A stretch of DNA of 64,000 bases from Candidatus Latescibacterota bacterium (GTDB lineage Bacteria > Latescibacterota > CBDEFO01), in NCBI GenBank assembly GCA_965248755.1, contig OZ252149.1, forward strand, positions 4,252,314 through 4,316,313. The letters run 5' to 3'. The notes under the pieces are model-generated. The model was not told the origin of the DNA, ran no database searches, and was given only the letters and a program-made list of their open reading frames with translations. How positions within the stretch are numbered: the stretch's first letter is position 1; every line of letters begins with the position of its first letter. This document shows, one piece after another, positions 893-60,938 of this stretch. Position numbers and translations under genes: made by a program.

Positions 893-1756
893 TCATCTTA
901 GTAGAACCATCTTTCTTGTGGCGGTAAAGTCCCCCGCTTTCAAGATGTAGAAATAGACTCCGCTCGCCACGCTCCTGCCCTCTTCATCCAGACCGTTCCA
1001 CACTAAAGAATAGCTTCCTGCGTCTGCCTGACCCTCCATAAGCTTCCTTACTGCCTGTCCGTTGATGTTGTAAATGACAAGCTTTGCCCTTGAGTCTTCG
1101 GGCACATCGTAAGCTATGGTGGTCTCGGGGTTGAAGGGATTGGGATAGTTCTGGGAGAGAGAATAGACGGTCGGTATATCCTGTGTGTCTTTGAAGCCTG
1201 ACCGGGTCCGTCTGACGACGATCTGAACTGGATCCAGGGATTCTATCAGGTCAATGTCGTCTTTAGCGATCCCTTTAAGCTCTATTCTGGCGAGAGTGAA
1301 AGTGACCTCAGATCCTACGGGAAGTTCACCTGAAGGTATAAATGAGATTACCCCCAGAAGTCCCTCTCCAGAGGGAGCTGTCCTATGGTCGGGCTTCACA
1401 ATGGCGTTGGCTACGATGACCCTGTTCTCCCTTTGCGTCTTCAAAGAGATGGGTGTTGCACCTCCCCTGGAGGATAGTATGTTGCGCTTCCCTTCACAAG
1501 ATGCCAGCGTGGAAGGCTCGTTCCAGGAGAAAAGCTCGCTGTCATATAGGAGGTCTATGCGGTAAGCAGTCAGGTCAGATACGCCTTCTGCATAGACAGC
1601 CACATCTACAGTCTGCTGATTGGACTTATACAGATCGAGTCTCAGTGAGGCTGCGCTGTTTGTGCCTGCCATTGGCTCCGATATAGGCATCAGAGCGACA
1701 GTCAGAAGGATAGCTCCAATAACGATGACTCTGGATATCATGATTTCCTCCTCCAT
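893..1756 (-). CDS. secreted cohesin-like domain protein with T9SS type-A C-terminal sorting domain
   Basis: N-terminal hydrophobic signal segment; C-terminal about 80 aa (YPNPFNPETTIAYDV...GVYFYILKAGDFTATRKMVLLR) matches the Por/T9SS C-terminal sorting domain pattern; central region resembles cohesin beta-sandwich domains (weaker, by recall only). Confidence 0.6.
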   Translation of the reverse strand: MEEEIMISRVIVIGAILLTVALMPISEPMAGTNSAASLRLDLYKSNQQTVDVAVYAEGVSDLTAYRIDLLYDSELFSWNEPSTLASCEGKRNILSSRGGATPISLKTQRENRVIVANAIVKPDHRTAPSGEGLLGVISFIPSGELPVGSEVTFTLARIELKGIAKDDIDLIESLDPVQIVVRRTRSGFKDTQDIPTVYSLSQNYPNPFNPETTIAYDVPEDSRAKLVIYNINGQAVRKLMEGQADAGSYSLVWNGLDEEGRSVASGVYFYILKAGDFTATRKMVLLR

Positions 1757-1906: not shown

Positions 1907-2599
1907 CTATCCTGTTTTGCCGAAGTTATCCAGAAAAAGGACAAAGTCGGAAAGGCCTACCTCTTCATCATTATCCAAATCAAATGTAGAATCCCAATTG
2001 GTAGAACTGGACGTCGTCCCGAACACATCCAGAAAAAGGACAAAGTCGGAAAGACCTACTTCATTGTCGCCGTCGAAGTCTCCTACAAGTCGGATGGCAG
2101 CGCCGTCTGAGCTGAGGAACTGTATTTCATAAATGACAGCGCCACCGACAACCTGGAAGCTGATGTTATCAATGGCAAATTCCGGCGAACCAGGGATATC
2201 GTACCAACCGGTGACTCCAGCGGGTACAACCGCCTCATGTCCGTAGAGCGACGTCAGCCCACCTACACGAAAGCCCTCCTCAGTGAAGCCCCCTCCTAAA
2301 TAGCCGAATACTCTGTATTGGTACATCTCTCCGAGATAGACCCGGATAGTCTGAAGCCGTACAGTGTCAGGCCACGATACAGCCAACAAACCGATCCAAT
2401 CCCATACAAAAGCGGGAGCGTCCGGGTCAATATCGGGCGTGCGCCCATCGGTGAGTGAGGCTACATCGCCTGTCCAGGTGTTGTGCGTGGTGGCCATGGT
2501 AATTGCATCGGGGGTGATGTCTTTGGCAGAAAAGCTTCCTATGGTCGCGAGGATGATAGGAACTCCCACGATCACTAATATAAGGATAATCTTATACAA
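1907..2599 (-). CDS. exported protein with C-terminal dockerin-like double repeat
   Basis: N-terminal hydrophobic segment MYKIILILVIVGVPIILATIG; C-terminus has two Ca-binding-loop-like repeats DFDGDNEVGLSDFVLFLDVFG ... DLDNDEEVGLSDFVLFLDNFG. Confidence 0.6.
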   Translation of the reverse strand: MYKIILILVIVGVPIILATIGSFSAKDITPDAITMATTHNTWTGDVASLTDGRTPDIDPDAPAFVWDWIGLLAVSWPDTVRLQTIRVYLGEMYQYRVFGYLGGGFTEEGFRVGGLTSLYGHEAVVPAGVTGWYDIPGSPEFAIDNISFQVVGGAVIYEIQFLSSDGAAIRLVGDFDGDNEVGLSDFVLFLDVFGTTSSSTNWDSTFDLDNDEEVGLSDFVLFLDNFGKTG

Positions 2600-2684
2600 G
2601 GAGTTCTTATCCTATTCCCACTGACAGATTTGAGGAGGACTTTCCTGGTGCACTCAAAGAGAAAACCCTGAAGGTGAGAAAAGC

Positions 2685-3809
2685 TTATGCCTTCCACTCT
2701 TCAAGCCATTTATACTTCTCCGGCAAGTAGTCTCCCTGGCTCTCGTCGGCTGCTTGAGCATAGATCTGCAAAAGTCGGATGTCCATCTCAGATAAGCCAT
2801 CGCCCTGCGTCGCTCCTACGTTCTCTACAACTTCATCTATAGAATTCATCGCCGGGATCGTGCTGGCAATCTCCTTGGCTTCCAGGATAAACCTCAATGC
2901 CGCCTGAGGGAGACTTGACTCGATGCCCTCTAGCTCCGCTAGAAGAGGATCTGAGGGCTCCAGGTTAAGCAAAGCTCCTCCGGCAAATGGCTTGATCCCT
3001 ATGAGCCCCAGGCCGGCTTCGCTGATCCGGGTGGCAAAGTCGGGCTCGTCACAAGGCTCGAAGAAGCAGTCGACAGTTTGCTGAGCGGCTTTCGGCGCTC
3101 GGTCAGCAGTCACTCCCGCCTTGATCTGTCCCCAGGAAGAGGCCTGAGCTGAGGTGACAGGAGATAATCTCCGATGCCGGAAGTTATACGGTAGGAACAG
3201 GTAGTCCAATTCCGGATTGTCGCTAAGTAGCTCCAGCAATCTTTTCTGATCGTGATTCGTTACCCCAATGGCCCTTATCTTGCCCTGCTCCTTGGCCTGC
3301 TGCAAAATTTTGAAACGCCCGGTCTCGCCGCGCGCGTCGCGATAGAGATCGATGTAATCGGTATTGAAGGTCTTCAAGGCAAATTCGATCTCCCCCATGA
3401 GGTCGCTCTCCACGGCGACTAGAGATATTACGACATCTTGGCGCACCGGTCCCAACACCTCGCTCATCAGATCAAACTGATGATAATTGTGCTCATAGAT
3501 GTCGAAGAGGTTTATGCCTAACTCTAAGCCTTTTCTGATTACCGCTGCTCTCGCCTGGGGATCACCCCTTTTGTCTTGATTGAGATGAGATCCAAAGCCC
3601 ATCTCTGAGACGCGGATTCCTGTTTTACCCAGTGTTCTATATTTCATGTCCCCTGAAGCAGTCGTAGAGCCGGAACTTGCAACAGCAGGGGTTAACAATG
3701 CTCCAGCCCCTAAAGCAGCAGCACTCATCTTATGGATAAATTCTCGACGGGTGAGTTCTGTGGCCTTCGTTGACTGCAATCTATGATTAGAAGATCGAAT
3801 AGACTTCAT
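2685..3809 (-). CDS. aldo/keto reductase with twin-arginine (Tat) signal peptide
   Basis: 374 aa; N-terminus TRREFIHKMSAAALGAGALL fits a Tat signal; body has aldo/keto reductase character (GINLFDIYEHNYHQ etc.). Confidence 0.75.
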   Translation of the reverse strand: MKSIRSSNHRLQSTKATELTRREFIHKMSAAALGAGALLTPAVASSGSTTASGDMKYRTLGKTGIRVSEMGFGSHLNQDKRGDPQARAAVIRKGLELGINLFDIYEHNYHQFDLMSEVLGPVRQDVVISLVAVESDLMGEIEFALKTFNTDYIDLYRDARGETGRFKILQQAKEQGKIRAIGVTNHDQKRLLELLSDNPELDYLFLPYNFRHRRLSPVTSAQASSWGQIKAGVTADRAPKAAQQTVDCFFEPCDEPDFATRISEAGLGLIGIKPFAGGALLNLEPSDPLLAELEGIESSLPQAALRFILEAKEIASTIPAMNSIDEVVENVGATQGDGLSEMDIRLLQIYAQAADESQGDYLPEKYKWLEEWKA

Positions 3810-4021
3810 ATCAGTACCCTTTCATTTGGGTTTATGTGATGACGGAACTAATGGACTTTAAGATACGAACAAGCAGGTCAAAGTCAATTCCTTTTTCACG
3901 GCGAATGACGACCATTATCGAGCGAACTGCGATTATTTGTATAACTTCATAATGCAAAGGATACTATCTGATTAAGATCAATTTCCTTGTCTGTACGGAT
4001 CCATCTGCTTTCGATCCATAC

Positions 4022-4915
4022 TTAGTTGGAGAAAGTTGACTTCATGCGGCCCCAGGTGTCAGCTTCGACCGATGTTGCAGGTACCCAGATGCTGGAATCA
4101 AAGGGGGCCAGGAGATAGTCGACGCAGTTGTCGGCATGATTGTCCAATCTTGTGGCCCCGCTGTTCGTCCAGAAGCCGTTGTAGCCCCCAACTTCGAGAT
4201 CGTCATCGTCCATAACAGCAAAGCCTATTCCGATGATGGCCCCCTCTTCATAGGTATGTATTATGCTATCATCTACACTATTAAAATCTATATCGTCAAA
4301 TCCCATGAAGTATGTCTCCACATTCAGCGTGCCCGGTCCACCAATTACACCAGCAAAGGTCCAGGTAAGGTCGGCATAAGGAGGCAATCCTGCCCATGCG
4401 GCCGCTCCCCAAAACCAGATGGGATTCTCTCTGTTCAGAAAATAGTGATAGTTTTGCGCCTGAGCTGAGTTGTACCTGTCGGGATCCAGATCGAGATCTT
4501 GCATGACCTGGTACTGTCCTCCGCTGTGGTCAGCATCGATGACCCACTCGATCATCTCCCGAATGTCCACCCCTGCGAAGGAAAGAGAGACATCGTCGTA
4601 CCTATCTTCCATTGTATATATCAGGTTAGTCACCGGACTCCATCCTACGATTATCCGTTCGGCAAGGTTAGAGGAGTCCGGATCCCCCAGGCCTCTGACA
4701 GTCTCTATCAGATCGTCATGCGTCACCCAGAACTCTGAGGGAACGTTAGCCCACTCGCTTAGATCGCTGTCTACTTCAATGTTCTGGAACTCATCGGTGC
4801 CAATCGGCACCTGGACAGCAACGAAGTTCCTATCCGACCTCAAATGAGCAGAACCCGTACTTATAGCAAAAAGAACAAATCCCAGGGCTGTAAATATCGC
4901 AAATATTGTCTTCAT
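4022..4915 (-). CDS. secreted hypothetical protein
   Basis: 297 aa; N-terminal signal peptide MKTIFAIFTALGFVLFAISTGSA; acidic, Trp-rich; function not recognisable. Confidence 0.5.
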   Translation of the reverse strand: MKTIFAIFTALGFVLFAISTGSAHLRSDRNFVAVQVPIGTDEFQNIEVDSDLSEWANVPSEFWVTHDDLIETVRGLGDPDSSNLAERIIVGWSPVTNLIYTMEDRYDDVSLSFAGVDIREMIEWVIDADHSGGQYQVMQDLDLDPDRYNSAQAQNYHYFLNRENPIWFWGAAAWAGLPPYADLTWTFAGVIGGPGTLNVETYFMGFDDIDFNSVDDSIIHTYEEGAIIGIGFAVMDDDDLEVGGYNGFWTNSGATRLDNHADNCVDYLLAPFDSSIWVPATSVEADTWGRMKSTFSN

Positions 4916-4953: not shown

Positions 4954-7900
4954 TTATTGTGTCCTTCCGAAGTTATCCAGAAAAAGGACAAAGTCAGAAA
5001 GACCGATCTCTCCATTGCCGTCTAAATCAAATATAGAATTGGCTGAAGTGGTCGTTGTCCCGAACGCATCTAGAAACAGGACAAAGTCGGCAAGGCCTAC
5101 TTCATTGTTCCCATCGAAATCTGCTGCAAGGTCTGGGGGAACAGCAGATATATCAGAGAGATTCAACAACACTGATACATTATCGCTGTTCCAATTAGCC
5201 ACAGCCAGGTCATTTGTCTCATCGCCATCTAAATCTGAAATAAATACGGAATGGGGACCGTCTCCAGCATCAAAGTCCAGCTTATCTTCGAATGTCCCAT
5301 CTCCTTTATTCAAGAATACTGACACATTATCGCTGAAAGAATTAGCGACAACCATGTCATTATCCTCATCACCATCTAAATCCGCGATGAAAACTGAGCG
5401 GGGAAAACTTCCGGCGTCGTAGTCTATCTTAGGTGCAAATGTCCCATCGCCATGGTTCAACAACACAGATGCGTTGTCGTTGAAAAAATTTGCCACAGCT
5501 ATGTCATTATCTCCATCAGCATCTACATCCGAAACGAAAACGGATATGGGACCATTCCCAGTGGGATAGTCCACCTTGTCTGCAAATGTCTCATCTCCAT
5601 TATTCATCAGCACTGATACGTTGTGGCTGGACGTATTAGCTACAGTCAGATCATTATCTCCATCCCCATCGAGATCCGAAGCGAAAATCGAATGAGGACC
5701 AGCGCCAGCGGCGTAGTCGCTCCTATCTGGAAATATTCCATCTCCTTTATTCAGCAACACTGACACACTATTGCTGAGCTGATTTGCCACAGCTAAATCA
5801 TTATCTCCATCGCTATCTATATCCGAACTATAAACCGATATAGGACCATCACCGGCAGCATAATCTATCTTAGGCGCAAATGTGCCATCGCCATTATTCA
5901 ACAGTATTGATACATTGTCGCTGCTGAAATTAGCTACAGCTAAATCGTTATCCCCATCGCCATCTAAATCACCAATGAATACTGATTGAGGAACATCTCC
6001 AGCGGGATAGTCTATCTTGGGCGCAAACTTCCCGTCTCCATCATTAAGTAGCACAGAAACAATATCATTGCTCAGATTAGCTACAGCTAAATCGTTATCC
6101 CCATCGCCATCTAAATCTCCACTGAATACTGATTCCGGTTTTTCCCCGGTGGCGTAGTCAGTCGGAAGTCCGAAAAAGACAAAAGCAAACGCAAATCCAT
6201 TCTCAAGTGTGTCTGCCTTACCGTCAGCATTTGCAACTATCACATCGACAGTACCGACAGGGTGTGCGGGAGGCAGAGCGGTAATTCTATTGCTGGCCAC
6301 TACGACTACATCTATGGCTGCCATATCCCCGAAAGTGACAGTCGCTCCGATCCCGAAATTACTCCCCGTAATCGTCACAAGCGTACCGCCCGATTCTGAG
6401 CCGACACCGGGCCTGATAGATGTCACAACAAGAGGGGGAGGAACAATAAACTCAAAGGCGTTAAAGAGCGTGTCTGTCTGACCGTCTGGATATGTGAGTA
6501 TCACATCCACAGTACCAACAGGATGACCGGGAGTCAGAGCGGTAATTCTATTGCTGGCCACTACGACTACATCTGTGGCTGCCATATCCCCGAAAGTTAC
6601 AGTCGCTCCGATCCGGAAATTACTCCCTGTTATCGTCACGGACGTACCGCCCAATTCTAGGCCGGAAGTGGGACTGATAGATGTTACAACAGGAGGAGGA
6701 GGAACAATAAACTCAAATCCGTTAAAGAGTGTGTCTGTCTGACCGTCGGGATTTGTTACTATCACATCGACAGTACCGAGAGGATGAGCAGGAGTCACAG
6801 CCCTAATAGCAAGGGAGGATAGTACGGCTACGTCTATGCCTGCCATATCCCCGAAAGTAACGGTCGATCCGATCCGGAAAGTACTCCCTGTAATCGTCAC
6901 AGGCGTACCGCCCGATTCTGAGCCGACACCGGGCCTGATAGATGTCACAACAAGAGGTCCAGTAAGGACAAACTCAAAGCCACTAAAGAGCGTATCTGCC
7001 TGACCGTCGGGATTTGTTACTATCACATCCACAATACCGAGAGGATGAGCAGGAGTCTTGGCAGTAATAATACCCAGAAGTCCTACAGCTACATTTGTGG
7101 CTGCCATATCGCCGAAAGTAAGAGTCGCTCCACTCTGGAAATTGCTCCCCGTTATCGTCACAGGCATACCGCCCAATTCCGTGCCAGAGGTAGGACTAAT
7201 AGATGTCACAACTGGAGAAAGCGGCACATTAGACCGATTCAACAACACTGATACACCGTTGAGATGAGCCGTAACCAGGTCATTATCTCCATCCCCATCT
7301 AAATCTGCAATGAAGACTGATATGGAACCATCCCCAGCGGTGTAGTCCACCTTAGGTGCGAATGTACCATCTCCATTATTCAACAACACTGACACATTAG
7401 CGCTTTCCAAATTAGCCACAGCAAGGTCATTATCCCTATCACCATCTAAATCTGCAATGAAGACTGATATGGAACGATCCCCAGCGATGTAGTCCACCTT
7501 AGGTGCAAATGTACCATCTCCATTGTTCAATAGCACTGACACAATACCGGGCCTGCTACTAAAGCCTCTCGCATTAGCCACAGCAAGGTCATTATCTCCA
7601 TCTCCATCTAAATCCGCACTGAATACTGACCTGGGATCTTCCGTTGCGTGATAGTCCACCTTAGGTGCAAATGTACCATCCCCATTATTCATCAACACTG
7701 ATACAGTATTGCCGGGACGTCCACTAGCCACAGTCAAGTCATTATCTCCATCCCCATCTAAATCTGCACTGAAGACTGAATTGGAACCAGACTCAGTGGT
7801 ATAGTCCACTTTGTCTGCAAATGTCCCGTCTCCATTATTGAACAGTACTGATACAGTACCCACCACATTAGCCACAGCCAGATCATTATCCCCATCCCCA

Positions 7901-8634
7901 TCTAAATCAACACTGAAAACTGATTGGGGACTATCCCCAGCGGGATAGTCTACCCTAGGTGCAAATGTTCCATTTCCATTATTCATCAACACTGATATAC
8001 TACCGATGTCAACAAATGAAAATAAAGCAGAATTAGCCACAGCCAGGTCATTATCCCCATCTCCATCTAAATCTGCACTGAATACTGAATTGGGAACACG
8101 CCCAGTGGGATAGTCCACTTTAGGTGCAAATGTACCATCTCCATTATTCATCAAGACTGATACAGTGCTGTCGGGGGTGGGGGTGAAACCCCCGAAACCC
8201 CCATTGGCCACAGCCAGGTCATTATCTCCATCTCCATCTAAATCCACGCTGAATACTGACGAGGGTTTATGCCCAGCGGGATAGCTTGTCGGAAGTCCGA
8301 AAAGGGTAAAAAGAAACTCAAATCCATTCTTAAGTGTGTCTGCCTGACCGTCGGGATTTGTGACTATCACGTCCACAGTGTCAGCAGGATGAGCGGGACT
8401 CACAGCTCCAATAGCGAAGGAGAATTTACGGTTTACATCTGTGGCCGCACGATCTCCGAAAGTGACAGTCACTCCGCTTTGGAAATTGCTCCCTCTTATG
8501 CCCACAGCCGTGCGCACGAATTCCGGTCCGGAACTGGGAGTAATAGATGTAACGACAGGAGGTTCCTGTGCATAGGCAGTCGCATTCAAAGCGTACAGCA
8601 GTGCCAGCGCAGTGTAGAGTATGGTTAATTTCAT
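4954..8634 (-). CDS. giant secreted surface protein: FG-GAP/VCBS repeats + four IPT/TIG domains + C-terminal dockerin-like module
   Basis: 1226 aa; signal peptide MKLTILYTALALLYALNATAYA; more than 15 repeats of the type SVFSADLDGDGDNDLAVAN...SVLLNNGDGTFAPKVDY; four modules VVTSISPTSG...TITGSNF...TFGD...VTNPDGQ (IPT/TIG-like); dockerin-like tail DFDGNNEVGLADFVLFLDAFG...DLDGNGEIGLSDFVLFLDNFG. Confidence 0.85.
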   Translation of the reverse strand: MKLTILYTALALLYALNATAYAQEPPVVTSITPSSGPEFVRTAVGIRGSNFQSGVTVTFGDRAATDVNRKFSFAIGAVSPAHPADTVDVIVTNPDGQADTLKNGFEFLFTLFGLPTSYPAGHKPSSVFSVDLDGDGDNDLAVANGGFGGFTPTPDSTVSVLMNNGDGTFAPKVDYPTGRVPNSVFSADLDGDGDNDLAVANSALFSFVDIGSISVLMNNGNGTFAPRVDYPAGDSPQSVFSVDLDGDGDNDLAVANVVGTVSVLFNNGDGTFADKVDYTTESGSNSVFSADLDGDGDNDLTVASGRPGNTVSVLMNNGDGTFAPKVDYHATEDPRSVFSADLDGDGDNDLAVANARGFSSRPGIVSVLLNNGDGTFAPKVDYIAGDRSISVFIADLDGDRDNDLAVANLESANVSVLLNNGDGTFAPKVDYTAGDGSISVFIADLDGDGDNDLVTAHLNGVSVLLNRSNVPLSPVVTSISPTSGTELGGMPVTITGSNFQSGATLTFGDMAATNVAVGLLGIITAKTPAHPLGIVDVIVTNPDGQADTLFSGFEFVLTGPLVVTSIRPGVGSESGGTPVTITGSTFRIGSTVTFGDMAGIDVAVLSSLAIRAVTPAHPLGTVDVIVTNPDGQTDTLFNGFEFIVPPPPVVTSISPTSGLELGGTSVTITGSNFRIGATVTFGDMAATDVVVVASNRITALTPGHPVGTVDVILTYPDGQTDTLFNAFEFIVPPPLVVTSIRPGVGSESGGTLVTITGSNFGIGATVTFGDMAAIDVVVVASNRITALPPAHPVGTVDVIVANADGKADTLENGFAFAFVFFGLPTDYATGEKPESVFSGDLDGDGDNDLAVANLSNDIVSVLLNDGDGKFAPKIDYPAGDVPQSVFIGDLDGDGDNDLAVANFSSDNVSILLNNGDGTFAPKIDYAAGDGPISVYSSDIDSDGDNDLAVANQLSNSVSVLLNKGDGIFPDRSDYAAGAGPHSIFASDLDGDGDNDLTVANTSSHNVSVLMNNGDETFADKVDYPTGNGPISVFVSDVDADGDNDIAVANFFNDNASVLLNHGDGTFAPKIDYDAGSFPRSVFIADLDGDEDNDMVVANSFSDNVSVFLNKGDGTFEDKLDFDAGDGPHSVFISDLDGDETNDLAVANWNSDNVSVLLNLSDISAVPPDLAADFDGNNEVGLADFVLFLDAFGTTTTSANSIFDLDGNGEIGLSDFVLFLDNFGRTQ

Positions 8635-29943: not shown

Positions 29944-30056
29944 TATTTTCTCACTTTCTTGCTTACGGCTATCCTTAATCTACGACTTTCAAATAAGCCT
30001 ATTTTATCAAAGTCAGCTTCCTCGTCTGCACAAATTCATCCGCCTCTAACTGTAAA

Positions 30057-32622
30057 CTATCCTGTCGTGCCGAAGTTATCCAGAAAGATCACAAAGTCAG
30101 ATAGACCTACTTCTCCATCGCTGTCCAAGTCATACGCAGAATCCCAATCGACTGAACTGGTAGTTGTTCCGAACACATCTAGAAAACGGACAAAATCGGA
30201 GAGACCTACTTCATTATCCCCGTCGAAATCTCCTACAAGGTCAGGGACGACAGTAAAGTCAGAGATATTCAACAACACTGACACACTGTCGCTCCATCTA
30301 TTAGTCACAACAAGGTCATTATTTCCATCTCCATCCAAATCCGCACTAAAAACTGACACGGGACCATTCCCAACACTATAGGCCGCATTAATTTCAAATG
30401 TCCCATTTCCATCATTCAACAACACTGACACATTATCACTGTTCTCATTAGCTACAGCCAAGTCATTATCCCCATCCCCGTCTAAATCCACACTGAAAAT
30501 TGATATAGGACTGTCCCCAACAGCATAGTTCATCTTAGGAGCAAATGTTCCATTTCCATTATTCAACAACACTGATACACTATCGCTGCCAATATTAGCT
30601 GTTGCTAAGTCATTATCTCCATCTCCATCTAAATCTGTACTGAATACTGATGCGGGTTCATTTCCAGCGTCATAGTCTGCCCTAAATGGAAATGCTCCAT
30701 CTCCACTATTCAACAACACCGATACATTTTCGCTAATAAGATTAGCCACAACTAATTCATTATCCCCATCCCCATCTAAATCCACACTGAAAATTGATAT
30801 AGGACCCTCCCCAACAGCATAGTCCACCTTAGGTGCAAATGTGCCATTCCCATTATTCAACAACACTGATACATTATCGCTGTTCCAATTAGCCACAGCC
30901 AAGTCATCATCCCCATCTCCATCTAAATCTGTAATGAATACTGACTCGGGACTACCCCCAACTGCATAGTCAGTCCTGGGTCCGAAAAGGACATCGACAA
31001 AAGCAAATCCGTCAGAGAGTGTGTCTGTCAGACCATTGGGATTTGTAACTATTACGTCTACAGTGCTAATAGGATGAGCGGGAATCACAGCGGTGATCGT
31101 ACTGGAGGATACTATGACTACGTCTGTGGCTGCTCTATCTCCGAAAGTAACAGTTGCTCCACTTTGGAAATCGCGGCCTTTTATCGTCACAGATGTACCA
31201 CCCAATTTCGTGCCGAAAATAGGATCAATAGATGTCACAATAGGGGGAACCCCAATAAAAGCAAATCCATTAGACAGTGTGCCAGCCTGACCGTCGGGAT
31301 TTGTGACTGTCACATCCACAATGCCAACGGGATGAGCGGGAGTTGTTGCGGTAATGGTACCCCAAAGTCCTACAGCTACATTTGTGGCATCGCTCTCGCC
31401 GAAAATAACAGTCGCTCCACTTTGGAAATTGCTCCCTGTTATCGTCACAGACGTACCCTCTAATTCCAGGCCAGAAGTGGGATTGATAGAGGTTACAGCC
31501 AGAGAAGGTATCACATCGGAGAGATTCAACAACACTGATACATTATCGCTACCCAAATTAGCCACAGCCAAGTCGTTATCACCATCTCCATCTAAATCCA
31601 CACTGAATACTGATTCGGGACGACTCCCAGCGGCATAGTCTACCTTAGGTGCAAATGGTCCCATTCCCATTATTCAATAACACTGATACATTATCGCTGA
31701 GGAAATTAGCCACAGCTAAGTCGTTATCTTCATCACCATCTAAATCTGCAATGAATACTGAATAGGCATGATCCCCAGCGGGATAGTCCACCTTAGTTAC
31801 AAATGTCCCATTCCCATTATTCAATAACACTGATACAGTACCGTCGAATACAGAATTAGCCACAGCCAAGTCATTATCCCCATCTCCATCTAAATCTGCA
31901 ATGAATACTGAAGAGGGACCAAGCCCGGCGTTATAGTCTGTCTTAGGTGCAAATGTCCCATCTCCTTTGTTCAACAACACTGATACATTATAGCTGTTCC
32001 TGTTAGCCACAGCCATGTCATTATCCCCGTCTCCATCTAAATCTGCGATGAAAACTGAAACGGGATTATCCCCAACAATCAAGTCTACCTTAGGTACAAA
32101 TGTTCCGTTCCCATTGTTCAATAATACTGAAACGCTATCGCTCCCTGCATTAGCCACAGCGAGGTCATTATCTCCATCCCCATCTAAATCTGCAATGAAT
32201 ACTGAACGGGGGAAAACCCCAGTGCCATAATCCACCTTATGCCCAAATGTTCCATCCCCATTATTTAACAACACTGATACAGTACCTGGGGGGATGTTAT
32301 TAGCCACAGCTAAGTCATTATCCCCATCTCCATCTAAATCCGCACTGAATACTGAACGGGGATATTCCGTAACACCATAGTCCACCTTAGGTGCAAATGT
32401 ACCATCGCCATTATTCAACAACACTGATACAGTACCTGGGGAGATGCTATTAGCCACAGCTAAGTCATTATCCCCATCTCCATCTAAATCCGCACTGAAT
32501 ACTGAACGGGGTTTATCCCCAGTGGCATAGGAAGTCGGAGGCCCCAAAAGGGCTTGTGCATAGACAGGCGCATACAAAGCGACTAACAGGATCAAAGCAG
32601 TATATAAGATTGCACACCTCAT
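30057..32622 (-). CDS. secreted FG-GAP/VCBS + IPT/TIG + dockerin-like surface protein, second paralogue, with apparent 1-nt frameshift near 31650
   Basis: ORFs 31645..32622 (signal peptide MRCAILYTALILLVALYAPVYAQA plus FG-GAP repeats) and 30057..31670 (FG-GAP, three IPT/TIG, dockerin-like tail) overlap; the frame break lies inside a conserved NNGNGTFAPK repeat. Confidence 0.7.
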
Positions 32623-60860: not shown

Positions 60861-60938
60861 GCGCCCATGGCTCAATTTGGATAGAGCATCTGACTACGGA
60901 TCAGAAGGTTGGGGGTTCGAGTCCCTCTGGGCGTGCCA
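60861..60938 (+). tRNA. tRNA-Arg (anticodon ACG)
   Basis: Cloverleaf folded by hand: acceptor GCGCCCA/TGGGCGT, D-stem GCTC/GAGC, anticodon stem TCTGA/TCAGA with loop CTACGGA, T-stem GGGGG/CCCTC with loop TTCGAGT, discriminator G, encoded CCA. Confidence 0.8.

Follow-up and report, generated by a model that had tools for sequence, protein, structure and literature searches.

A Latescibacterota lineage appears to attach a small dockerin module to many of its secreted proteins. In the reading that we consider likely, the tagged proteins are served by cohesin carriers that bear a type IX secretion (T9SS) sorting domain, and the DNA cassette encoding the tag was spread by recombination rather than kept uniform by cassette-wide gene conversion. 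The window, a stretch of 64,000 nucleotides from Candidatus Latescibacterota contig OZ252149.1, holds three copies of this cassette. Copy number and the variety of gene bodies were counted in a sister genome (MAG CBDEFO01, Latescibacterota, ~95% identical), which stands in for the window's own genome, and all comparisons between strains or genomes rest on metagenome assemblies.

Three cassettes encoding a divergent dockerin

Three minus-strand ORFs, here called g1907, g4954 and g30057, terminate at 1907, 4954 and 30057 and end in the following cassettes:

1907..2089, minus strand: dockerin cassette of g1907, with LVG codons, two F-hand repeats, KTG and the stop (module at residues 171-230; first Asp codon 2078-2080; stop 1907-1909)
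4954..5137, minus strand: dockerin cassette of g4954; the ~94%-identical inter-strain stretch stops at its 5' edge (5137)
30057..30248, minus strand: dockerin cassette of g30057, with VPDLVG, the module, TTG and the stop

The final ~175-185 nt of the three ORFs align with a mean column identity of 87%, and the sole gap, of 6 nt (two codons), lies in g4954. Pairwise, the cassettes are 79-82% identical in nucleotides and 70-83% in amino acids. The sequence-only reading had held that these 3' ends are homologous at the DNA level, and would have given this up had nucleotide identity been no higher than the protein match predicts. The protein alignment and the codon usage of the window predict 64-69%, so the excess is real; furthermore, identical residues in cassette pairs share the same codon at 65-70% of positions, versus 35% expected. 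The translations bear out that every cassette encodes the same two-repeat module (DFDGDNEVGLSDFVLFLDvFG ... DLDxxxEvGLSDFViFLDNFG), and a tblastn search of the window with the module found no copies beyond these three. The shared string CCGAAGTTATCCAGAAA... was likewise common to all three cassettes. Its reverse complement, lengthened, is the 29-mer GACTTTGTCCTTTTTCTGGATAACTTCGG, which occurs with at most 3 mismatches at 1920-1948, 4967-4995 and 30070-30098 and in an internal repeat at 2019-2047 (0 matches expected in shuffles); it begins 13 nt from the stop codon and not at the stop itself.

Dockerins are recognized as segments of ~60-70 residues with two duplicated stretches of ~22 residues, each of which pairs a Ca2+-binding loop with a following helix (the F-hand), and the module has this architecture. 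An AF2 model based on 17 family members (pLDDT 96.1) places helices at residues 13-22 and 46-55. The first Foldseek matches to this model in the PDB were 2y3n_B, 3kcp_A and 2b59_B, with TM scores of 0.82-0.87 and rmsd of 1.0-1.2 Å over 57-59 residues, and the top 11 were all type II dockerins (TM 0.74-0.87, rmsd 1.0-1.4 Å, with the exception of 4wi0_B at 3.0 Å; predicted model). Calmodulin-type EF-hands, in contrast, gave TM scores of ~0.25. A family profile searched against PDB sequences matched dockerins over their full length at E-values of 3.4e-5 to 7e-4, the best being 2b59_B (3.4e-5), 2y3n_B (5e-5) and 3kcp_A (6e-5). In both loops, Ca2+-binding positions 1, 3, 5 and 12 are Asp or Asn in almost all of the 25 cassettes, and position 9 is Gly. 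On the strength of the modeled fold and the profile homology, we regard the module as a true dockerin, divergent and ~58 residues long, with two predicted Ca2+-binding F-hand repeats; its predicted fold is closest to that of type II dockerins.

The divergence is evident from the family thresholds. The three window copies score 13.0-17.5 bits against Pfam Dockerin_1, under the gathering threshold (GA) of 22.9; of 17 family members, 14 reach E<=1, the best with an E-value of 1.9e-4. Matches to EF-hand_1/6 are also sub-threshold. The best NCBIfam match is NF041540 (dockerin_GC, GC-type dockerin domain-anchored protein), likewise a C-terminal dockerin-like domain; the scores of 20-22 bits fall below its 29-bit cut-off, so the module is not a member of that family.

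Gene bodies and the spread of the cassette

The gene bodies and neighboring elements of the window are as follows:

2090..2599, minus strand: g1907 body, a signal peptide or anchor and a domain of ~145 residues that has no Pfam match
2685..3809, minus strand: aldo/keto reductase gene, conserved upstream neighbor of the g1907 body family
3956..4008, minus strand: second window copy of the dispersed 3' element at 29992-30056, after ORF 4022-4915
4967..4995, minus strand: candidate short conversion tract in repeat 2 of g4954, identical at 29/29 nt to g1907 1920-1948
5138..8634, minus strand: g4954 body, a signal peptide, 6 TIG/IPT-like units (Pfam TIG scores 5) and ~14 FG-GAP repeats
29992..30056, minus strand: conserved non-coding element of ~65 nt, directly after the g30057 stop codon
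30249..32622, minus strand: g30057 gene body, a signal peptide, FG-GAP, 2 TIG, FG-GAP
31651..31662, minus strand: frameshift site GGGACC-A-TTTGC, with an extra A within an FG-GAP repeat unit

The upstream bodies had been described as different, which is correct for g1907 and incorrect for the other two. Residues 53-536 of g30057 align to residues 644-1225 of g4954 at 65% amino acid and 73.5% nucleotide identity (same-codon fraction 0.68), and the two are therefore whole-length paralogs of the TIG + FG-GAP_3 type. The 537-residue ORF 30057-31670 covers no more than the 3' portion of a gene of ~860 codons (30057-32622), which a 1-nt insertion has broken into ORFs 31645-32622 and 30057-31670; the variant FG-GAP unit at this site is present twice in L004, the positional ortholog of g30057.

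The body of g1907, for which Pfam returned no family, has its own family, in which an aldo/keto reductase gene always precedes. The module is absent from homologs of this body elsewhere, including a paralog in the sister genome, and DNA homology between g1907 and the tag-less paralog L032 stops at 2090|2089. Body dS to an in-genome paralog is 0.44. A tag-less paralog, P0002, was considered as an internal dockerin deletion on account of a shared 'NFG'; the support was a 9-nt match with an E-value of 0.47, and we rejected the idea because the P0002 tail is closer to the ancestral hydrophobic tail.

A search for further 3' cassettes, as the sequence-only reading had suggested, was run in the sister genome and located at least 24 module loci on about ten unrelated bodies. 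These include FG-GAP, TIG, NHL, PD40, F5/8-C, peptidase M6 with beta-helix, heparinase II/III and alpha/beta hydrolase with PKD, among others; a few members of the family carry the module at the N-terminus or internally. Were the three window genes simply duplicates of one ancestral gene, with no shuffling, the whole-length alignment of g4954 and g30057, at the same synonymous distance as the cassettes, would be expected. We judge this history highly improbable for all three, given that the g1907 body is unrelated to FG-GAP/TIG and belongs to a family that lacks the tag, and that about ten unrelated architectures are joined at the same junction in the sister genome. Plain paralogy is thus refuted for g1907 and holds for the g4954/g30057 pair. 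Together, the unrelated bodies, the tag-less homologs of the g1907 body and an inter-strain break at the edge of the g4954 cassette support module shuffling, as judged from sequence comparison. One ancestral cassette would have been spread by DNA recombination onto unrelated gene bodies, fused at a fixed junction (...P-x-L-V-G|DFDG) and taking along ~12 nt or more of 3' flank, and the three window copies would be alike in DNA because they descend from it.

Gene conversion had been put forward as the other possible source of this likeness, with a comparison of synonymous divergence between cassettes and bodies as the check. Cassette dS (0.61-1.03; family median 0.885 over 282 pairs) is the same as the dS of the paralogous bodies (0.65-0.96), and cassette dN is 0.08-0.13 versus 0.26-0.29 in the bodies. 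The excess nucleotide identity of the cassettes is due to their lower dN. That the protein is under strong purifying selection (dN/dS ~0.15) would explain why the cassette is more conserved than the bodies, and its synonymous sites are still unsaturated (dS ~0.6-1.0).

Ongoing conversion that kept the cassettes alike while the bodies drifted would make within-genome paralogs more similar than orthologs and reduce dS in the tract, a pattern that the cassettes do not show. The g1907 cassette is nearest to L003 (95.7%) and the g4954 cassette to L019 (92.9%), in each case the positional ortholog, whereas the two are 82% identical to each other. Some observations do favor such concerted evolution. 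Namely, repeat 2 of g4954 carries 3 clustered changes, all within 4 nt (GTGATC to GTCCTT), that match g1907 and not its own ortholog, which has the other state, as do 20 of 24 members of the family; the internal repeats of g1907 agree with each other at 34/36 nt, where the family average is 26.7 and the ortholog of g1907 has 29; and the g30057 cassette, at 82.7% identity and a dS of 0.69, is no closer to L004 than to random paralogs. At that last locus, however, the whole gene is replaced or diverged between strains, not the cassette alone, within a flank that is ~96% identical. The conversion-like signal is limited to short tracts, apart from this whole-gene replacement. Cassette-wide gene conversion is not supported by these sequence comparisons, and concerted evolution as the main cause, which we hold to be quite improbable, is largely refuted.

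Both FG-GAP genes of the window show paralog-level differences between strains of ~95% identity. At the g4954 locus, identity is ~94% as far as 5137; on the upstream side of this point, one strain has a TIG domain and the other an FG-GAP repeat; at g30057, a strain-specific junction lies around 29950-30950. Such repeat-rich genes are easily misassembled, and errors of this sort could generate or displace apparent breakpoints; however, L001 and L002, assembled independently of each other, agree on the sister-strain junction at g4954. The FG-GAP/TIG paralogs, rich in repeats, are probably still recombining between strains, with crossovers at or near the cassette.

Finally, we considered whether a function at the DNA or RNA level (for example as a structured mRNA 3' end, a regulatory site or the target of a recombinase) conserves the nucleotides of the cassette rather than its protein. 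Homology runs ~12 nt beyond the stop codon in most copies, and a non-coding element of ~60 nt follows several; the element at 29992-30056 recurs in the 3' flank of at least 7 dockerin paralogs. However, the synonymous sites of the cassette diverge as fast as those of the bodies, and the element also occurs apart from cassettes. RNAalifold gave no convincing consensus structure for it (-2.06 kcal/mol, no compensatory pairs), and the one Rfam match in the window was a tRNA, with none to the cassette or the 3' element. A DNA- or RNA-level function of the coding cassette is thus disfavored, and we would assign it almost no weight.

A candidate cohesin carrier

The gene directly downstream of g1907 encodes a putative binding partner for the module:

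893..1756, minus strand: candidate partner gene, 150 nt downstream of g1907, with signal peptide, cohesin and T9SS C-terminal domain (CTD)
1202..1666, minus strand: type II-like cohesin domain of ORF 893-1756 (residues ~31-185)
Residues 204-284 of ORF 893-1756, minus strand: T9SS C-terminal sorting domain

Pfam Cohesin (PF00963) does not match ORF 893-1756 itself even at E<=10. The ORF aligns end to end, at 36% identity, with the cohesin and T9SS CTD part of L026 from the sister genome, whose cohesin scores 33.2 bits against a GA of 24.1, and 5 of 10 relatives match Pfam Cohesin, 3 of them above GA. A profile of the ORF and 13 relatives (A8) matched the type II cohesin 3l8q_A in the PDB at 3.1e-17 and 14 more cohesin chains at <=6e-5, including the type II cohesins 4u3s_A (8e-9), 2b59_A (1e-5) and 2y3n_A (6e-5). 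Cohesins have a nine-stranded beta-sandwich fold; an AF2 model of the ORF from a 2-sequence alignment was all-beta and, at a pLDDT of 39, unusable. The C-terminal domain scores above threshold with both Por_Secre_tail (PF18962; 29.7 bits, GA 27) and FlgD_ig (41.7 versus 27). ORF 4022-4915, the gene after g4954, has no Pfam family; it was tried as cohesin-like and rejected at an hhalign probability of 0.1.

Candidate cohesin partners are thus encoded in the same genome as the dockerins, namely ORF 893-1756 in the window and, in the sister genome, L026 and the gene downstream of L014. The last of these forms a second tandem of a dockerin gene followed by a cohesin-CTD gene. A protein 100% identical to ORF 893-1756 (P0044) lies on the same 4.54-Mb contig as five more module proteins, and the cohesin-like P0095 (217 residues) is on that 4.54-Mb contig as well. 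In the relatives P0056 and P0076, a cohesin of the ORF 893-1756 type and a dockerin of the g1907 type occur in one chain. Because ORF 893-1756 combines a signal peptide, a type II-like cohesin and a T9SS domain, it is a plausible surface anchor and dockerin partner. The module had been called a docking tag, and its dockerin fold, its profile homology to solved dockerins and the cohesin-bearing gene next to g1907 all agree with that name.

It could also be that the module is a generic EF-hand-like Ca2+-binding stabilizer, or a signal that acts in cis for sorting or anchoring, much as GC-type dockerin anchors do, and that the cohesin gene is nearby by coincidence. The sub-threshold EF-hand_1/6 matches, dockerin_GC scores about equal to those of Dockerin_1, and the presence of at least 24 dockerins versus only a few identified cohesin genes would fit this idea, and many bacteria have dockerin-like modules with no recognized cohesin (Peer et al. 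2009, as cited in PMC8542988). We nevertheless find it unlikely. The fold and profile matches are specifically to dockerins, two different dockerin genes (in the window and at L014) are each immediately followed by a cohesin gene, and the same cohesin and dockerin types are found within single polypeptides elsewhere. Furthermore, the module is sometimes N-terminal or internal and is therefore unlike a C-terminal sorting signal.

The dockerin-tagged proteins have Sec signals only and carry no T9SS sorting domain. In the docking model that we favor, the Sec signal peptide would export each tagged protein, the dockerin would bind, in a Ca2+-dependent manner, to the cohesin domain of small carrier or anchor proteins, and carriers with a type IX C-terminal sorting domain, such as ORF 893-1756, would hold the cargo at the cell surface. 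A bolder extension, which we regard as distinctly unlikely, makes the dockerin a trans-acting secretion tag. In the periplasm, the tagged protein would bind a cohesin-CTD carrier, for which ORF 893-1756 is an example, and the complex would pass through the type IX secretion system and stay tethered to the outer surface; the cassette and the dispersed 3' element would serve as recombination anchors that let strains exchange FG-GAP/TIG adhesin bodies before the tag.

A cellulosome combines dockerins on glycoside hydrolases with a scaffoldin of several cohesins, and the proteins scanned in the window and the sister genome do not have this composition. Each cohesin protein found has one cohesin, and the DNA examined yielded no scaffoldin with several cohesins. 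No glycoside hydrolase domain was present among the 10 sister-genome cargo proteins scanned; tagged proteins in that genome include a hydrolase, a peptidase, a heparinase-like protein and a beta-helix protein.

Comparison with known docking systems

Protein docking of this kind is already known, and the Latescibacterota case is a fresh example of it. Its interest lies in the possibility that an uncultured Gram-negative phylum displays dozens of proteins on its surface through one small tag, among them integrin-like FG-GAP/TIG adhesins, hydrolases, peptidases and lyase-like proteins, with a cohesin and type IX secretion as the proposed anchor. Since both the dockerin and the cohesin escape Pfam thresholds, routine annotation overlooks such systems. 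The adjacent pair of g1907 and ORF 893-1756 is, moreover, a candidate new orthogonal cohesin-dockerin pair.

The closest structural counterparts are the type II dockerins of C. thermocellum (CipA XDoc-SdbA, 2b59/3kcp) and Bacteroides (Pseudobacteroides) cellulosolvens (2y3n), which share the duplicated F-hand fold of ~58 residues at an rmsd of ~1 Å, Asp or Asn at loop positions 1, 3, 5 and 12, and the C-terminal '...FGkT' ending. The best-matching cohesins for ORF 893-1756 are the type II partners of those same clostridial dockerins. Unlike these dockerins, the module is only 24-29% identical to them, has no preceding X-module, lies under the Dockerin_1 threshold, has Gly at loop position 9, and consists of near-identical repeats (SDFVLFLD / SDFVIFLD). 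The setting also differs from that of clostridial scaffoldins, as the host belongs to the Gram-negative FCB group and the window cargo comprises FG-GAP/TIG repeat proteins and a small protein of no known family.

Within the FCB-group candidate phyla, Ca. Stygibacter (Cloacimonadota) has dockerin-tagged enzymes and a cohesin scaffoldin with a T9SS CTD, inferred to be cellulosome-like (PMC8542988), and 'cellulosome-affiliated enzymes' are attributed to Latescibacteria (Farag et al. 2017, as cited in PMC7081726). Common to those systems and the present one are C-terminal dockerins on proteins with signal peptides, cohesin proteins whose terminal T9SS sorting domain serves to attach them to the surface of the producing cell, and evidence from genomes only, in uncultured hosts. 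In contrast to them, the carriers here are either small single-cohesin proteins (287 residues) or a protein of at least 1303 residues that ends in one cohesin, the cargo is mostly adhesin-like FG-GAP/TIG, and one carrier gene adjoins a cargo gene.

Non-cellulosomal dockerins have been described on proteins that are not glycoside hydrolases, in organisms that have no cellulosome (Peer et al. 2009, as cited in PMC8542988). The Latescibacterota dockerins resemble these in being carried by proteins other than glycoside hydrolases, and differ in forming a lineage-specific expansion (at least 24 per genome) with DNA-level homology. Because the expansion retains this homology, the spread of the module can be dated (dS ~0.6-1) and its fusion junctions and inter-strain breakpoints can be mapped directly from the aligned copies, a direct reading that is seldom possible for dockerins.

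A dockerin module encoded by shared 3' DNA

The three genes with 3' ends at 1907, 4954 and 30057 on the minus strand (g1907, g4954 and g30057) are present, as confirmed by ORF listing and by direct reading. Their last ~180 nt, the cassette, have a mean column identity of 87% in a three-way alignment, with a single gap of 6 nt (two codons) in g4954. The 29-mer GACTTTGTCCTTTTTCTGGATAACTTCGG, a lengthened reverse complement of the CCGAAGTTATCCAGAAA... described in the sequence-only reading, occurs without mismatch at 1920-1948 and 4967-4995 and with three mismatches at 30070-30098 and at an internal repeat, 2019-2047; shuffled sequence gave no match. No fourth copy within the window was found by tblastn of the module, the ~58-aa two-repeat product of the cassette. 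Pairwise identity among the window copies is 70-83% for protein and 79-82% for DNA, compared with 64-69% DNA identity expected from the protein alignment and window codon usage, and identical residues share the same codon in 65-70% of cases against an expected 35%. The nucleotide homology therefore goes beyond protein similarity, as had been proposed.

The accompanying proposal that the upstream bodies differ holds for g1907, whose body is unrelated to the others and has no Pfam match. It does not hold for g4954 and g30057, which are both built of TIG and FG-GAP_3 repeats and align in their bodies (g30057 aa 53-536 with g4954 aa 644-1225; 65% aa and 73.5% nt identity, same-codon fraction 0.68).

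Recognition of the module as a docking tag proved correct. Matches to Pfam Dockerin_1 (13-17.5 bits, cut-off 22.9), Pfam EF-hand_1/6 (up to 22.8, cut-off 25) and NCBIfam dockerin_GC (20-22, cut-off 29) all fall below threshold. An AF2 model from an alignment of 17 family members (pLDDT 96.1) has type II dockerins as all of its best 11 PDB matches, with TM 0.74-0.87 and rmsd 1.0-1.4 Å except for 4wi0_B (3.0 Å), while calmodulin-type EF-hands reach a TM of only ~0.25. Furthermore, the family profile matches solved dockerins over the full length (E 3.4e-5 to 7e-4), and positions 1, 3, 5 and 12 are D/N in both loops. On these fold, profile and loop features, we treat the module as a divergent dockerin subfamily.

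The window is syntenic and ~95% identical to one contig of the MAG CBDEFO01, the sister genome, in which 24 module loci were found. The module lies at the extreme C-terminus in about 19 of these and follows a signal peptide or is internal in four. Module-bearing bodies include FG-GAP, TIG, NHL, PD40 propeller, F5/8-type-C, peptidase M6 with beta-helix, heparinase II/III-like, PKD with alpha/beta hydrolase, cupredoxin-like and several unknown types. Weaker relatives of the module occur in another Latescibacterota genome, Pirellulaceae and Eisenbacteria. Two near-identical heparinase II/III-like dockerin genes, with cassettes identical in protein sequence, lie on separate sister-genome contigs (CBDEFO010000008.1 and CBDEFO010000004.1); the pair arose by very recent duplication or else is duplicated only in the assembly.

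Proposed origins: module shuffling and gene conversion

Two origins had been suggested for the shared cassette, module shuffling and gene conversion. The first is supported by tag-less homologs, a family-wide junction and a breakpoint between strains. The g1907 body belongs to a family of small secreted or anchored proteins with 28 homologs (53-91% identity), of which the ortholog P0001 alone is tagged with the module; all others have another, mostly hydrophobic C-terminal end, and in other lineages a hydrophobic tail stands in the place of the g1907 dockerin. An aldo/keto reductase gene always directly precedes the body gene (window 1907-3809; a paralogous locus, L032 2770-4546; a distant relative, L033 2817-4627). 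When g1907 is compared with its tag-less paralog in the sister genome (P0002, body dS 0.44), DNA homology ends at 2090|2089, the first cassette codon. Family-wide homology begins about 18 nt ahead of the first Asp codon, at GTCCCTGRCCTTGTAGGA, encoding V-P-x-L-V-G, and extends ~12 nt beyond the stop codon (YTTTACRGT). At the g4954 locus an identity of ~94% between the strains extends from 3' of the gene to 5137, past which the sequences cannot be aligned. Immediately upstream of the cassette the sister strain has a TIG domain and the window an FG-GAP repeat; the sister-strain junction is the same in two independent assemblies.

Separately, a 4.5-kb insertion in the sister strain (L001 3998-8519), at a point corresponding to window ~3860-3865, separates ORF 4022-4915 from the aldo/keto reductase gene. 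It encodes an IS1595-family transposase and an N6/N4 DNA methyltransferase, the latter with an additional HNH domain in a second assembly.

No support was found for gene conversion as the origin of the cassette similarity. By Nei-Gojobori estimates, synonymous divergence is not reduced in the cassettes (dS 0.61-1.03, dN 0.08-0.13) relative to the g4954/g30057 bodies (dS 0.65-0.96, dN 0.26-0.29); the cassette family medians are dS 0.885 and dN/dS 0.146. Synonymous sites in the cassettes and in the bodies are thus of equal age, and with equal dS and lower dN the cassette is more conserved only through stronger protein constraint. The g1907 and g4954 cassettes are each nearest to their own orthologs (L003, 95.7%; L019, 92.9%), and therefore have not been homogenised since the strain split.

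There are local exceptions. Repeat 2 of g4954 has a cluster of three changes spanning 4 nt (GTGATC to GTCCTT) that bring it into agreement with g1907, a gene 3 kb distant, with 29/29 nt identical; GTGATC is kept in the g4954 ortholog and in 20/24 family members. The core of the g1907 internal repeats (1920-1955 and 2019-2054) is identical at 34/36 nt, compared with 29/36 in the ortholog and a family mean of 26.7, a pattern that suggests a recent conversion event within the gene, from one module half to the other. Finally, the strains are ~96% identical in the flank of the g30057 locus, whereas the whole gene, its cassette (dS 0.69) and ~100 nt of 3' flank show paralog-level divergence (68-93% per 60-nt bin), implying replacement at this locus by recombination with paralogs.

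The g30057 reading frame and a dispersed 3' element

Two further features concern g30057 and its surroundings:

31651-31662, minus strand: 1-nt insertion in g30057 (GGG ACC A TTT GCA instead of GGN ACC TTT GCA), inside an FG-GAP repeat; splits the gene.
29992-30056 and 3956-4008, minus strand: dispersed ~60-nt non-coding element, also in L004-L007, L009, L011, L013, L014, L020, L001 and others.

Because the insertion splits the gene, ORF 31645-32622, which encodes a signal peptide, is the true 5' part of g30057. The extra-A unit occurs twice in the sister-strain positional ortholog L004 (nt 1355 and 2367) and in none of the other FG-GAP paralogs compared, and so looks inherited, even duplicated; random assembly error is an unlikely source. 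g30057 may be a pseudogene or may tolerate frameshifting.

The ~60-nt element (consensus ~GAGACGGATGGATTTGTGCAGACGAGGAAGCTGAyCTTGATGAGATAGG) lies directly 3' of the stop codon in many dockerin genes and also after or before some neighbouring genes, in every case on the gene strand. Most copies match by nhmmer at E about 1e-19 to 3e-9, with two weaker matches; the element matches nothing in Rfam and lacks a conserved RNA fold. The strain-variable region at g30057 reaches about 40 nt past it. The sole Rfam match within the window is a tRNA gene at 60861-60935 (+).

A candidate cohesin partner and known systems

A tblastn search with the Pfam-certified cohesin of L026, a sister-genome protein combining a divergent dockerin, a Cohesin domain (33.2 bits, threshold 24.1) and a FlgD_ig/Por_Secre_tail region, matched the window at 1340-1582, within an ORF that begins 150 nt downstream of the g1907 stop codon:

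893-1756, minus strand: ORF with signal peptide, ~155-aa domain and T9SS sorting domain (29.7 bits, threshold 27).

Pfam Cohesin does not match this ORF itself. It aligns end-to-end with the L026 cohesin and C-terminal sorting domain (CTD) (36% identity, E 8e-46), much of the score coming from the CTD. An exhaustive search gave 41 relatives; Pfam Cohesin matches 5 of 10 scanned, three above threshold, and one is named 'Cohesin domain-containing protein' in UniRef. A 14-sequence family profile matches the type II cohesins 3l8q_A (3.1e-17), 4u3s_A (8e-9), 2b59_A (1e-5) and 2y3n_A (6e-5), and several type II cohesins so matched are partners of the module's best-matching dockerins. A second tandem of dockerin gene and cohesin-CTD gene, including a homologous intergenic region, is found at L014, and the relatives P0056 and P0076 join this cohesin type and the module's dockerin type in one chain. 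The AF2 model of the ORF was unusable. These sequence comparisons point to ORF 893-1756 as a candidate cohesin partner of the module. The dockerin proteins are Sec-only, and their piggyback through T9SS towards a surface-anchored cohesin would be a speculative route.

P0044 is 100% identical to ORF 893-1756. With P0029, P0031, P0038, P0041 and P0042 grouped by inference with its genome, the window's own genome would hold at least eight module genes.

Small cohesin-like proteins of ~200 aa (P0048, P0049 (P0093/P0095) and P0083), one in the sister MAG and one on P0044's contig, end in the conserved motif '(A)VE..(T/S/R)WG.(I/V)K..F' in place of the T9SS domain, which may serve as an alternative signal for sorting or anchoring. 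L026 (at least 1303 aa) has, at aa ~1000-1300, a degenerate dockerin directly ahead of its own cohesin and T9SS CTD, with the acidic residues of the first Ca2+ loop gone; self-docking or chain formation is conceivable.

By the defining features tested, the system is not a cellulosome. It belongs to the kind inferred for Ca. Stygibacter (Cloacimonadota), which has dockerin-tagged enzymes and a cohesin scaffoldin with a terminal T9SS CTD (PMC8542988), and reported for Latescibacteria, with 'cellulosome-affiliated enzymes' (Farag et al., 2017, as cited in PMC7081726). Unlike in those systems, the cohesin carriers here contain one cohesin each, most of the cargo is adhesin-like, a carrier gene adjoins a cargo gene, and the family is young enough for its DNA history to be readable.
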